From Escherichia coli (GTDB lineage Bacteria > Pseudomonadota > Gammaproteobacteria > Enterobacterales > Enterobacteriaceae): 5,318 nt of DNA. A program made the position numbers and the translations under genes. The stretch lies in NCBI RefSeq assembly GCF_044324875.1, contig NZ_CP172190.1; one strand, written 5' to 3'. The number at the start of each line of letters is the position of its first letter. The stretch's first letter is position 1. The notes under the pieces were generated by a model. The model was given only the letters and a program-made list of their open reading frames with translations. It did no database searches and had not been told where the DNA came from. Shown here piece by piece: positions 3,219 through 5,318 of this stretch.

Positions 3219-3531
3219 GTTGACATCCTCCATGCCCTGAAGGACGGGGTTTTACAGCACACCGGATAACTATCTCGACATGGATATTGATACACGTTAA
3301 AAATACGTGACGCGTTTCTGGCAGATATCTGAGGTCTATTTCGCCGTGTTAGCCACACTGTCAGAAACGCGTTCAATTTCTCCCGTTGAGCTGATATGCT
3401 CATCACCGCAATCACGGTAGTGTCCGAAGACGAACCGTTAATGCATCTTCCCCCCGATACTGGGCTTTCGGGGGGAATATTTACTCGGTGCGCCGTAAAA
3501 CCCCGTCCTTCAGGGCATGGAGGATGTCAAC
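3219..3531. repeat. 313-bp element bounded by perfect 37-bp terminal inverted repeats (MITE-like element or invertible segment); interior 239 bp
   Basis: 3219-3255 GTTGACATCCTCCATGCCCTGAAGGACGGGGTTTTAC is the exact reverse complement of 3495-3531. The interior contains its own inverted-repeat pair (3310-3373) and a 9-bp G/C stem hairpin (3449-3476). No convincing CDS inside, and no target-site duplication is evident at the boundaries. Confidence 0.6.
3310..3373. repeat. Inverted-repeat pair B: ACGCGTTTCTG (3310-3320) and CAGAAACGCGT (3363-3373), 42-bp spacer
   Basis: Perfect 11-bp inverted repeat (15 of 16 if extended), sharing the CGCGTTTCTG core with pair A. It lies inside the 37-bp-IR element. 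Confidence 0.5.
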
Positions 3532-3838: not shown

Positions 3839-4376
3839 ATGCCATAGCGCAAAACAATTTCGTTTCACAGATGTGACTTACAATCAAACTGTGCAACATA
3901 AATCACAAAACAAGAAGGTTTTGTTATTATTTTGTTGATGAGTTGTTTTTCGTTGGTTGTTTTTTTGAGGCGTACATACGCGCACAAATGTAAAACTAAA
4001 TTCGTGTTTTCGATAATTTTAAGGCCACAATCATTATGGCATTTTTTATCCTGATCGCCGTCAAAATCTGTCCTTCATGGCAGGATTTACGGCGATCCGG
4101 ATAACACCAAAGATACCTACATGCTCATTCCCCTGTGGTTTCCAGGATATCTTTCCTGTTTTCTGTGCTGTTCATCGCGCCGCCATACCCCGTAACGACT
4201 GCGCTCAGTACCCCTGAAATTTCGCTCGCCGGAAACACGCGGGTGTTGTTTTAACGTGTCCCGGTAGCGGTGTCCAGGCAGGTATGCTTCCGCCAGCGGA
4301 GTTGTTGATCTTGTGTTCTGTTTTTGGCTAGTATTTGTCCGAAAACCTGTCGCTCCGGCGACCAACTAATCTCCCG

Positions 4377-4471
4377 GTGGTCTGAGAGGGAGGCTTACGC
4401 GACCACACTGTCATCTCAGGATGACCAGCCAATGTTCCGGCAGTCTGAGAGGAGCGCCTTCGGGTGACTGC
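4377..4471. other. Two tandem structurally homologous hairpins (candidate structured RNA or protein-binding motif pair)
   Basis: Hairpin 1: stem GTGGTC (4377-4382) / GACCAC (4401-4406). Hairpin 2: stem GCAGTC (4440-4445) / GACTGC (4466-4471). The stem sequences differ but each keeps perfect pairing (compensatory changes). Both loops begin TGAGAGG and contain an inner mini-hairpin (GC-TTAC-GC; GCC-TTCG-GGT, a UUCG tetraloop). Both are preceded by CCGG. A further tetraloop hairpin GTCATC-TCAG-GATGAC lies between them at 4410-4425. Confidence 0.35.
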
Positions 4472-4934
4472 AATATCCCATGAGCCTGGAAGAGGATGCC
4501 TATATGGCGGCAACATCCGTTTAGCCTCTGGAAACGGATGTCACCAGTAGCTGGTGACTGAGGTACGTTATTTTTACCTTCGGATTACCCGTACGGTTTT
4601 GTATGTCATGAAACTTACGAGTTTTCCTCTCGCAGAGTGGCGAAATGCCTTATATATCTGCGTCTTAAAGATTTTCTGTCAGGCTGCATGAGCTTCTTGT
4701 GACTGTGCGCACGGCATAAGGCCATTTGAAATTTGGCTGCTTGCGTGTGTACGTGGAGTCTGAAGCTGTGCGGCGTCACTTGCGTGCGACCGGAGGGAAC
4801 ACCAAGTGACGCCACAACAATCTGCCCTGAAAGCAGCATCACGTAAGGCCTGCCAGAAAATCGTCGCTCGTGACCAGCGTTCTGATGACCGTTTTGTCTT
4901 TCTGACAGCGTCTTTCAGTAACGTGTCCATGCCT

Positions 4935-4981
4935 TTCCGGCGCGTCCGTTTTCACGGACGGCCACGCCGGAATGTCTTTTT
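4935..4981 (+). terminator. Rho-independent terminator (plus strand), compound GC-rich hairpin plus U tract
   Basis: Outer stem CCGGCG (4937-4942) / CGCCGG (4965-4970) and inner stem CGTCCGT (4943-4949) / ACGGACG (4954-4960) with loop TTTC, followed by TGTCTTTTT (4973-4980). It lies inside the 66-aa ORF 4806-5006, which argues that ORF is not a real CDS. Confidence 0.55.
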
Positions 4982-5037
4982 AAACTTCATAATACATGAG
5001 AGGTAAGTGTATTAACTTGTTGAAAAAAGGAATAAAT

Positions 5038-5127
5038 ATGAAAAATCGTTCTGAAGTCGGAAGGCGTCATCGTAAGATGACGGGGAGTAAAAAATCGCCC
5101 TGGTGCACAGGTAGCGAACTCCTGTAA
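5038..5127 (+). CDS. Possible small basic ORF (29 aa, MKNRSEVGRRHRKMTGSKKSPWCTGSELL); leader-peptide-like, speculative
   Basis: ATG at 5038 is preceded by AAGGA (5027-5031) with 6-nt spacing. The ORF is very short with no recognisable family, and lies about 55 bp downstream of the terminator at 4935-4981. Confidence 0.2.
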   Translation: MKNRSEVGRRHRKMTGSKKSPWCTGSELL

Positions 5128-5263
5128 AAACTCAACATGTGCAAGCTCTGCTACATCGACATCAAACGAGCCAGGAAGGCGAGCAACCGCGTTACAGAGC
5201 CGTCCGTGATGACGAAAAACTAACAATATCAACGATCTGGTCTGTTTATCGGAAGGGCATCTC

Positions 5264-5318
5264 ATGCAGTTGAACTTTCAGAACGGATGGTTTTCTGCAT
5301 CTTTTTTAACAGGGGGAT
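5264..5318 (+). CDS. Possible 5' end of a downstream gene running off the window (MQLNFQNGWFSASFLTGG...)
   Basis: ATG at 5264 is preceded by GGAAGGG (5251-5257) with 6-nt spacing. Only 18 codons are visible. The same sequence could alternatively fold as a weak hairpin followed by a T tract (5295-5307), so the call is tentative. Confidence 0.25.
   Translation, partial: MQLNFQNGWFSASFLTGG

Follow-up and report, generated by a model that had tools for sequence, protein, structure and literature searches.

A hairpin pair on a small Escherichia coli plasmid belongs to a tandem array of STAXI RNA pseudoknots of SPI-7-type ICE origin

Identification of the hairpins as STAXI units

Our analysis revealed that the two neighboring hairpins at positions 4377–4471 are, with near certainty, units of STAXI RNA (Rfam RF01728). 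They lie in the window, the whole 5,318-nt stretch of DNA that was analyzed, which is a complete small E. coli plasmid of 5.3 kb and of the theta type. The Rfam scan of the window returned a STAXI match at 4409–4568 on the + strand with 89.1 bits against a gathering score of 40.5 (E = 1.5e-18), and the match covers positions 1–153 of the 153 in the covariance model. The same scan returned EFASI RNA (RF02957) at 71.7 bits against a gathering score of 51.2 (E = 2e-13); the two matches are both on the + strand and 478 nt apart. Both hairpins are part of an array of four pseudoknot units. The second is the first pseudoknot unit within the STAXI model, and the first is an extra unit 5′ of the Rfam match.

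STAXI is a family that is already catalogued and was described in 2010, and the hairpin pair is not a new class. Weinberg et al. (Genome Biol 2010, 11:R31; PMC2864571) described it as a pseudoknot in two or three tandem copies in Enterobacterales, in the neighborhood of ssb, topoisomerase, antirestriction, and XerDC-type integrase genes, and left undecided whether it is RNA or single-stranded DNA, with the UUCG loops tilting toward RNA. Its Rfam type label is sRNA. STAXI and radC together constitute about 80% of the RNA genes detected in MPF_G ICEs (PMC5587801). We found no published experiments in the literature consulted that give STAXI a function; later papers merely list it.

The family characteristics are recognizable in the window to different degrees. 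The unit, which in STAXI occurs at least twice and usually three times, is present as units A–D, and the pseudoknot pairing is legible in all four. UUCG caps occur in the majority of homologous STAXI units, and in the window in unit B only, as C(UUCG)G at 4458–4463; the other caps are UUAC in unit A, a 5-nt loop in unit C, and a 3-nt loop in unit D. The name-giving gene neighborhood (ssb, topoisomerase, antirestriction, XerDC-type integrase) is entirely missing from the plasmid; topoisomerase III, ssb, ArdA, and integrase genes occur in the E. coli SPI-7-type ICE that holds the 99.2% identical source block.

Organization of the array

The features of the array and its surroundings are as follows.

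4305–4334, + strand: putative sigma-70 promoter of the STAXI transcript, with −35 TTGATC (4305–4310), an 18-nt spacer, and −10 TAGTAT (4329–4334); from the sequence and the comparison of loci
4347–5318, + strand: SPI-7-type ICE-derived block, 99.2% identical over 972 nt to a block in the E. coli TUM9803 chromosome
4349–4362, + strand: leader hairpin 1 (GUCGC-UCCG-GCGAC); next comes CAACUAAU, a variant CCAAUG linker; read from the sequence
4371–4406, + strand: pseudoknot unit A; from the sequence, unit model R1, an independent profile (5′ half), and its presence in the source ICE
4410–4425, + strand: hairpin 2, GUCAUC-UCAG-GAUGAC, followed by CAGCCAAUG; opening element of the STAXI model in the Rfam alignment
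4434–4471, + strand: pseudoknot unit B; from the Rfam alignment, the independent profile, and covariation of each helix including the pseudoknot
4475–4511, + strand: pseudoknot unit C, weakened here; from the Rfam alignment, model R2, and pair counts
4515–4564, + strand: pseudoknot unit D; from the Rfam alignment, model R2 (78.1 bits), and covariation
5046–5168, + strand: EFASI RNA; from the Rfam match

The STAXI element extends from approximately 4341 to 4566 on the + strand and consists of a 5′-terminal hairpin, unit A, a second hairpin, and units B, C, and D. All units are H-type pseudoknots and not plain hairpins. Each begins with a 5′ pseudoknot strand of 4–8 nt, a 1-nt linker, and the 5′ side of a 3–6 bp stem; these are followed by a conserved UGRRA, the pseudoknot partner, a small capped hairpin that stacks on the stem, and the 3′ side of the stem. 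The linkers between units read YYAAWN, typically CCAAUG.

The initial annotation had reported two hairpins with perfect 6-bp stems of different sequence, and the reported stems are correct: GTGGTC (4377–4382) pairs with GACCAC (4401–4406) in unit A, and GCAGTC (4440–4445) pairs with GACTGC (4466–4471) in unit B. The TGAGAGG said to follow each 5′ stem strand is present at 4383–4389 and 4446–4452. The two-hairpin description needs to be extended, since the units are pseudoknots and the array has four of them. In unit A, CUCCC (4371–4375) forms the pseudoknot with GGGAG (4388–4392), and UGAGA occupies 4383–4387; in unit B, GUUCC (4434–4438) pairs with GGAGC (4451–4455), and UGAGA occupies 4446–4450. 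The inner mini-hairpin noted in both is well formed in unit B (GCC-UUCG-GGU, 4456–4465, with a basal G·U pair) but weak in unit A, where it is degenerate and has only 2 bp (GC-UUAC-GC, 4393–4400). The CCGG at 4374–4377 and 4437–4440 exists, but it is not an independent lead-in: it overlaps the end of the 5′ pseudoknot strand, the 1-nt linker, and the first stem base.

Further modules occur nearby, namely the two extra pseudoknot units C and D and the two simple hairpins at 4349–4362 and 4410–4425. Unit C has a pseudoknot of AUCC (4475–4478) with GGAU (4494–4497), a 3-bp stem of GCC (4484–4486) with GGC (4509–4511), and an inner hairpin at 4498–4508; its outer stem is flagged for non-standard pairs in the Rfam alignment. 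Unit D has an 8-bp pseudoknot of AUCCGUUU (4515–4522) with AAACGGAU (4532–4539), a 5-bp stem (4524–4528 with 4560–4564), and an 8-bp inner hairpin (4540–4558).

The hairpin starts in the window are 63 nt apart, as had been read from the sequence, whereas the unit spacing in most other loci is 46–48 nt. The larger spacing arises because a module of hairpin plus unit (4349–4406) is duplicated ahead of the start of the Rfam model. A counterpart of leader hairpin 1 with covarying stems lies 5′ of unit 1 in nearly all of the loci compared. Unit A scores 46 bits under unit model R1, although it was in the seed. An independent profile, built from units of other genera only, recovered unit B with an E value of 2.6e-16 and the 5′ half of unit A with an E value of 1e-3. 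Unit A is therefore divergent yet genuine.

Structural conservation and folding strand

The structure of STAXI, including its pseudoknots, is under selection. To gather homologues, one genome per species was scanned with a pattern, and 82 loci were obtained; the genera included Serratia, Photorhabdus, Xenorhabdus, Erwinia, Pantoea, Citrobacter, Klebsiella, Yersinia, and Cedecea. For the canonical unit, a covariance model that left out the pseudoknot matched 154 units in the 85 sources searched, from many Enterobacterales genera, and the covariation alignment comprised 120 distinct rows from approximately 150 units. In these 120 rows, 97.3% of the pair cells hold standard pairs, and changes on both sides occur in 12 of the 14 pairs. 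The pseudoknot helix is compensatory in all five of its pairs, though it was absent from the search model. None of 500 shuffles reached the observed covariation values, and pairing fell to 32–50% when the partner strands were slid. Thus the covariation proposed as a check on the hairpins is very strong, and the suggestion that selection acts on nucleic-acid folding rather than on a reading frame is borne out.

A second covariance model (R2) was made for units C and D. In its alignment, 94.3% of the positions concerned are paired and 27 of 30 pairs are compensatory, with both pseudoknots counted. The compensatory pairs include all six pseudoknot pairs of unit C; in unit D, both-side changes are seen in seven of eight pseudoknot pairs, five of five stem pairs, and five of five inner-hairpin pairs.

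The ratio of G·U to A·C is 189:20 in the canonical-unit alignment, and 184:41 in another count. Because G·U far exceeds A·C, it is the + strand that folds, and this strand is also the sense strand for the genes downstream. Of the 120 units, 107 retain the basal G·U pair of the inner hairpin.

Thermodynamic folding gave a different picture. For positions 4365–4485, the MFE on either strand was no better than that of shuffled sequences (z = +0.98 and +1.04), so that the folding check suggested for the hairpins does not speak for them, and the region would escape detection by thermodynamics alone. The MFE fold misses the pseudoknots and disrupts unit B.

The initial annotation had named a decayed coding fragment as one finding that would overturn its reading. 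Open reading frames at 4324–4467 (+) and 4328–4516 (−) overlap the array, but the variation is compensatory and not codon-wise and the units are spaced 46, 47, or 48 nt apart; a coding fragment was thus rejected.

Origin and genomic context

The block in the TUM9803 chromosome that is nearly identical to the window sits within an annotated SPI-7-type ICE, whose genes include those for ParA, DnaB-PI, ParB, topoisomerase III, ssb, an MPF_G transfer system, a type IVB pilus, a relaxase, and an integrase. In the window, the ICE-derived block holds the transcript start, STAXI, a spacer, and EFASI, and runs up to the RBS of a missing integrase-like gene. The ICE homology ends at this RBS, which is the end of the window, and the plasmid copy has no integrase-like gene. 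This ICE contains three STAXI copies, each co-oriented with the genes downstream of it: one precedes STY4534-ssb, one precedes EFASI and a gene with an integrase domain, and one precedes a cluster ending in ardA.

The first same-strand ORFs downstream of 88 arrays fell into an integrase-like cluster (24 arrays, always behind EFASI), an STY4534 cluster (20), an antirestriction-like cluster (4), and others. The antirestriction-like cluster was named by eye only and had no NCBIfam match; among eight downstream proteins searched against NCBIfam, only the STY4534-family protein was named. ICEs and other genera show the same order, with EFASI following STAXI. Between STAXI and the gene there is usually a second leader specific to that gene, either EFASI or a hairpin with a U-run that abuts the RBS; a hairpin and U-run with alternative pairings is found between STAXI and the first RBS in about a quarter of the loci.

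STAXI-like sequence is present in 729 of the 5,426 complete E. coli genomes searched, including orphan copies in decayed islands of O157-type strains. No homologues were found in a phage genome collection, and the family was found only in conjugative elements. The genes near STAXI arrays include those for ArdA, other antirestriction proteins, and methylases.

The plasmid itself carries RepA with iteron-like repeats upstream and a LysE-family gene. Over the 451 nt compared (4200–4650), it is 99.8% identical to pLH50-c-F (NZ_CP100506.1, 5,319 bp) and to NZ_CP135677.1. A protein remnant at 1–147 of the window was considered as an inovirus Gp2-type protein of the same genome, and comparison ruled this out. 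The STAXI-EFASI block also occurs, at 90% identity, in an unrelated 3.1-kb rolling-circle plasmid with an HUH-Rep, and strain TUM9803 contains the ICE together with both small plasmids.

RNA or single-stranded DNA

The comparison of loci indicated a promoter at a fixed distance from the array. In 44 of 88 distinct STAXI loci, the best −35/−10 match falls in one 5-nt bin, 61–65 nt 5′ of unit 1, and the commonest −35 among the 88 loci is TTGACA. A promoter score of at least 9/12 was reached by 49% of the loci, versus 19% of shuffled sequences and 20% on the reverse strand. The best match in the window lies at −63 relative to unit 1. This putative promoter is weak (8/12): a consensus promoter scan of 4000–5318 gave nothing above threshold, and the candidate was recognized solely by comparing the 88 loci. 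The predicted transcript start is near 4341. The leader hairpin begins approximately 10 nt past the −10 element, and the similarity between STAXI copies begins at the predicted transcript start.

Two published observations also bear on this point. Weinberg et al. (2010; PMC2864571) argued that C(UUCG)G caps stabilize RNA but not DNA, and STAXI and EFASI were detected by RT-qPCR after DNase treatment in vesicles of a Shiga-toxin-producing E. coli (STEC) strain (PMC12370729). Because of the fixed-distance promoter, the onset of similarity at the predicted start, the UUCG caps, and the RT-qPCR report, we favor RNA, and STAXI probably acts as RNA rather than single-stranded DNA. Among the options listed in the initial annotation, part of a small RNA and a repeated binding module fit best, in view of the Rfam sRNA label and the promoter at a fixed upstream distance.

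The alternative is that STAXI folds as single-stranded DNA during conjugation or rolling-circle replication, as a G4-type ssi, a plasmid sso, or a Frpo-type promoter. We consider such a DNA-level role unlikely, with only a slim chance of being correct, and the single-strand initiation or promoter element that had been proposed for the hairpins found no support in the Frpo, G4-type ssi, and sso tests. The possibility was raised by Weinberg et al. (PMC2864571), and if STAXI took part in single-stranded DNA transfer, its confinement to conjugative elements, with no homologues in the phage genomes searched, would also be expected. Evidence for RNA comes, however, from the UUCG caps (PMC2864571) and from the sigma-70 promoter, which is of the duplex kind and lies at a fixed distance.

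The resemblance to Frpo and ssi elements (Masai and Arai 1997; Samuel et al. 2024, PMC11541004) is that of repeated, structured non-coding elements before ssb and anti-restriction genes: STAXI precedes ssb and ardA, as do the Frpo/ssi elements of F-like and IncI plasmids. In Frpo, one long, imperfect hairpin restores the −35/−10 duplex on the transferred template strand, whereas in STAXI small pseudoknots are strung along the sense strand, 3′ of an ordinary duplex promoter. No Frpo-type inverted repeat covering the promoter was found in the window or in four other loci. A Frpo-type promoter was rejected on the sense-strand fold given by both G·U counts and on the co-orientation of the downstream genes. 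In the F leading region (F 48–68 kb), the STAXI unit model found nothing, the best score being 14.4 bits (E = 0.11).

STAXI shares clustered hairpins and a conserved CTG with G4 oric and plasmid ssiA. CTG is the trinucleotide at which E. coli primase starts, and its conservation in every STAXI unit speaks for a role in single-stranded DNA. In G4 oric, however, the CTG lies 3′ of a plain 8-bp hairpin, unlike in STAXI, where it is inside each pseudoknot, and the unit model had no match in the G4 genome.

The presence of the module on a rolling-circle plasmid, a plasmid type that requires an sso, would also suit a DNA-level role. In this plasmid (NZ_CP059920.1, 3.1 kb), rep and a pC194-like origin motif (563–592) are on the + strand of the record, whereas STAXI and EFASI fold on the − strand. 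The dso, which we take to lie at this motif by its resemblance to the pC194 and pUB110 origins only, is therefore on the strand opposite to the STAXI sense strand, and the displaced strand would lack the STAXI fold, contrary to an sso. CTTGATA is absent from the plasmid; only a pC194-like motif, TAAGGGATAAC, was seen.

Functional models

The best overall explanation, which we hold with moderate confidence, is that the STAXI RNA array acts as a promoter-proximal structured leader. For the more specific proposition that STAXI serves in cis as a leader or platform, our confidence falls just short of even. STAXI would then be the generic, promoter-proximal first module of ICE "establishment" operons and would be followed by gene-specific leaders. 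The operons concerned would be STY4534-ssb, ardA with other small genes, and the integrase-like gene behind EFASI. In favor of a leader are the co-orientation of all three ICE copies with what they precede, the recurrent clusters of first downstream ORFs, the lack of an intrinsic terminator right after unit D, and the second leader that usually comes next. The tandem pseudoknots may present conserved single-stranded bases (UGAGA, CCAAUG) and a fixed G·U pair, and these exposed bases would most likely serve as a multivalent platform for a protein. Additionally or alternatively, the pseudoknots could form a 5′ barrier on which the stability, read-through, or translation of the following transcript depends. 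The plasmid copy would be an orphan that gives a non-coding STAXI-EFASI transcript.

The main rival is a trans-acting non-coding RNA, in which the pseudoknots would titrate or decoy a host or ICE protein, as a CsrB-like sponge or a type III antitoxin mimic, and the proximity of genes would be incidental or serve co-expression. The gene-less plasmid copies speak for such a sponge or decoy. The module is kept without a downstream gene on the 5.3-kb theta plasmid, on the 3.1-kb rolling-circle plasmid, and in decayed islands of the O157 type, and the copies on these two unrelated small plasmids suit a cis leader no better than they suit an RNA acting in trans or a role at the DNA level. The sRNA label in Rfam, the repetition of near-equivalent units with conserved single-stranded bases, and the neighboring ArdA, antirestriction, and methylase genes are also consistent with it, and the hairpin and U-run after STAXI in about one-quarter of the loci could release a discrete RNA. 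However, no intrinsic terminator lies directly 3′ of unit D, and none follows the array in the window. A CsrA-type sponge is unlikely because GGA is not conserved in the unit loops; many units read GAGAAAC. On the whole, we regard a trans-acting RNA as unlikely, though it deserves more weight than a DNA-level role.

Tandem small-ligand aptamers were also considered, in which a metabolite or ion would be the ligand of each 43-nt pseudoknot and the units would jointly control a downstream terminator-like element or RBS in the manner of a riboswitch. The smallest aptamers known are similar to small H-type pseudoknots whose junction bases are invariant, and a terminator-like hairpin with alternative pairings follows STAXI in many loci. 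Against this, the DNA-handling and anti-restriction genes downstream share no metabolite, and the putative expression platform lies at a variable distance, several hundred nucleotides away in loci of the EFASI type. The motif was also scored as not a riboswitch in the table of Weinberg et al. (PMC2864571). We consider this model very improbable.

Returning to a promoter-proximal RNA leader, a bolder and quite speculative extension, to which we give little credence, is that STAXI is the RNA-level counterpart, in SPI-7-type ICEs, of the plasmid Frpo and provides a burst of establishment-gene expression after entry, or else that it is an anti-defense decoy RNA; small plasmids co-resident with the ICE would have captured the module because it acts in trans or by hitch-hiking. 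The burst would concern ssb, ardA, and a recombinase, and could be achieved by a terminator-resistant RNA polymerase or by a block of 5′-end-dependent RNase E scanning.

STAXI is among the better supported orphan RNA classes of Enterobacterales. Our study extends its catalogue entry by a pseudoknot register that is stated explicitly and backed by counts of covariation; by a conserved promoter, here putative, at a fixed upstream distance; by its place at the head of ssb, ardA, and integrase-like operons, with a frequent second leader downstream; and by the finding that two unrelated small plasmids captured it along with EFASI. If STAXI indeed controls early ICE genes, it would offer a handle on the establishment of islands in new hosts.

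Comparison with known systems

The window copy agrees with the catalogued STAXI family (RF01728) in its full-length match, its tandem pseudoknots with UUCG caps, its Enterobacterales host, and its source element with ssb, topoisomerase III, ArdA, and an integrase. It differs in the extra hairpin-plus-unit module 5′ of the model start (4349–4406), in the weakened unit C, with a score of 89 bits versus up to 139 bits in other copies, and in its location on a 5.3-kb plasmid that lacks the name-giving genes. EFASI (RF02957) is the described companion of STAXI, a few hundred nucleotides downstream on the same strand, and was found at 5046–5168. It has a distinct structure and, in ICEs, stands ahead of the integrase-like gene that is absent from the window.

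The type III antitoxins (ToxI, CptI, TenpI) are likewise tandem repeats of approximately 35–45 nt, each of which is a pseudoknot. Type III antitoxin repeats are near-identical copies, whereas the units within one STAXI array diverge by compensatory changes and the array ends in a dedicated, distinct pair, units C and D. No ToxI or other antitoxin RNA was matched in Rfam at E values up to 1, and no toxin-like gene was found beside the arrays in annotated regions or among the first downstream ORFs. These findings also weigh against the antitoxin version of a trans-acting RNA. A type III antitoxin RNA was rejected, as the window has no downstream gene and the genes in other loci are integrase-like, of the STY4534 family, or antirestriction-like.

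Structured leaders that act in cis include HK022 put, Bacillus EAR, the leader pseudoknot of T4 gene 32, and 5′ stabilizer hairpins such as that of ompA. STAXI shows no kinship with them in sequence or structure, and the analogy is confined to position and logic. By that analogy, STAXI would resemble them as a promoter-proximal structured RNA before operons, with a 5′-terminal hairpin within approximately 10 nt of the predicted start and with SSB encoded by one of the target operons.

Junction and spacer of the STAXI-EFASI block

The homology with the integrative conjugative element (ICE) of E. coli TUM9803 extends as far as the ribosome-binding site and start codon (ATG) of an integrase-like gene, which is absent from the plasmid. 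The ATG of this lost gene now starts a 52-codon ORF across the circular junction (5317-5318 joined to 1-157), which overlaps, out of frame, a C-terminal protein remnant. The gene located behind EFASI in ICEs encodes an integrase-domain protein of approximately 300 aa, and it is this gene that the window lacks.

1-147, frame 1: C-terminal protein remnant (...GKSIAKYTHRNFTPETFAQYVADTHTPEIQAARDEAEKQICHD)
5046-5168, + strand: EFASI RNA (RF02957), 478 nt 3' of STAXI

The remnant is distinct from the Gp2-type inovirus protein found in strain TUM9803. The spacer between STAXI and EFASI contains a perfect 11-bp inverted repeat (GGCGTCACTTG at 4771-4781 and CAAGTGACGCC at 4803-4813), which is kept in other genera and could fold into a further hairpin in the RNA or else serve as a DNA or protein site.

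Putative regulatory elements and repeat loss in related STAXI loci

Comparison of STAXI loci revealed a conserved second leader between STAXI and the first gene, for example at 11130-11200 of L072 and 9270-9330 of L005, and in loci L015, L021, and L052. Its layout is CCC..GGGAAACAC..GTGTTTCC, a run of 5-8 T, and then GGAGAAACA..ATG. The leader is a terminator-like hairpin adjoining the ribosome-binding site, and its pairings are mutually exclusive. By a strict test the element was present in 24 of the 87 loci, and the Rfam search of related loci assigned it to no family at gathering score. At the promoter, an inverted repeat, AGCCTGCT...AGCAGGCT, covers -35 to +1 in locus L016 (7733-7765) and similar loci; it looks like a repressor operator.

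The tandem repeat itself is altered in L001, a locus of the IncK2/Z plasmid NZ_CP029742.1.

8009-8051 of L001: chimeric STAXI unit, also in ~12 similar records

This unit joins the 5' half of unit A to the 3' half of unit B, and pairing is lost in its stem (GAGGTC / GACTGC). The chimera corresponds to a deletion of 63 nt between the repeats. The L001 copy is flanked by IS elements and looks decayed.

Plasmid backbone and distribution of the block

The iteron-like repeats and the RepA-like ORF presumably mark the replication origin of the 5.3-kb plasmid.

~1500-1650: iteron-like direct repeats AGGCAATATGATTTAAGGT and an inverted copy, 5' of the RepA-like ORF
1690-2391: RepA-like ORF, 233 aa

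Weak matches to Rfam miRNA families at 1564-1644 were dismissed as artefacts of the AGGCAATATGATTTAAGGT repeat. Elsewhere on the plasmid, two 55-nt inverted repeats (3219-3273 and 3477-3531, 91% complementary) surround a 203-nt core, and together they look like a miniature inverted-repeat element.

The STAXI-EFASI block, at 90% identity, also occupies 30% of a HUH-Rep plasmid of 3.1 kb that replicates by the rolling-circle mode (NZ_CP059920.1 / NZ_CP135679.1; locus L090, 2197-3128). Strain TUM9803 carries the ICE, the 3.1-kb rolling-circle plasmid, and the 5.3-kb plasmid together. The block is retained on two small plasmids, of 5.3 and 3.1 kb, that are unrelated to each other.
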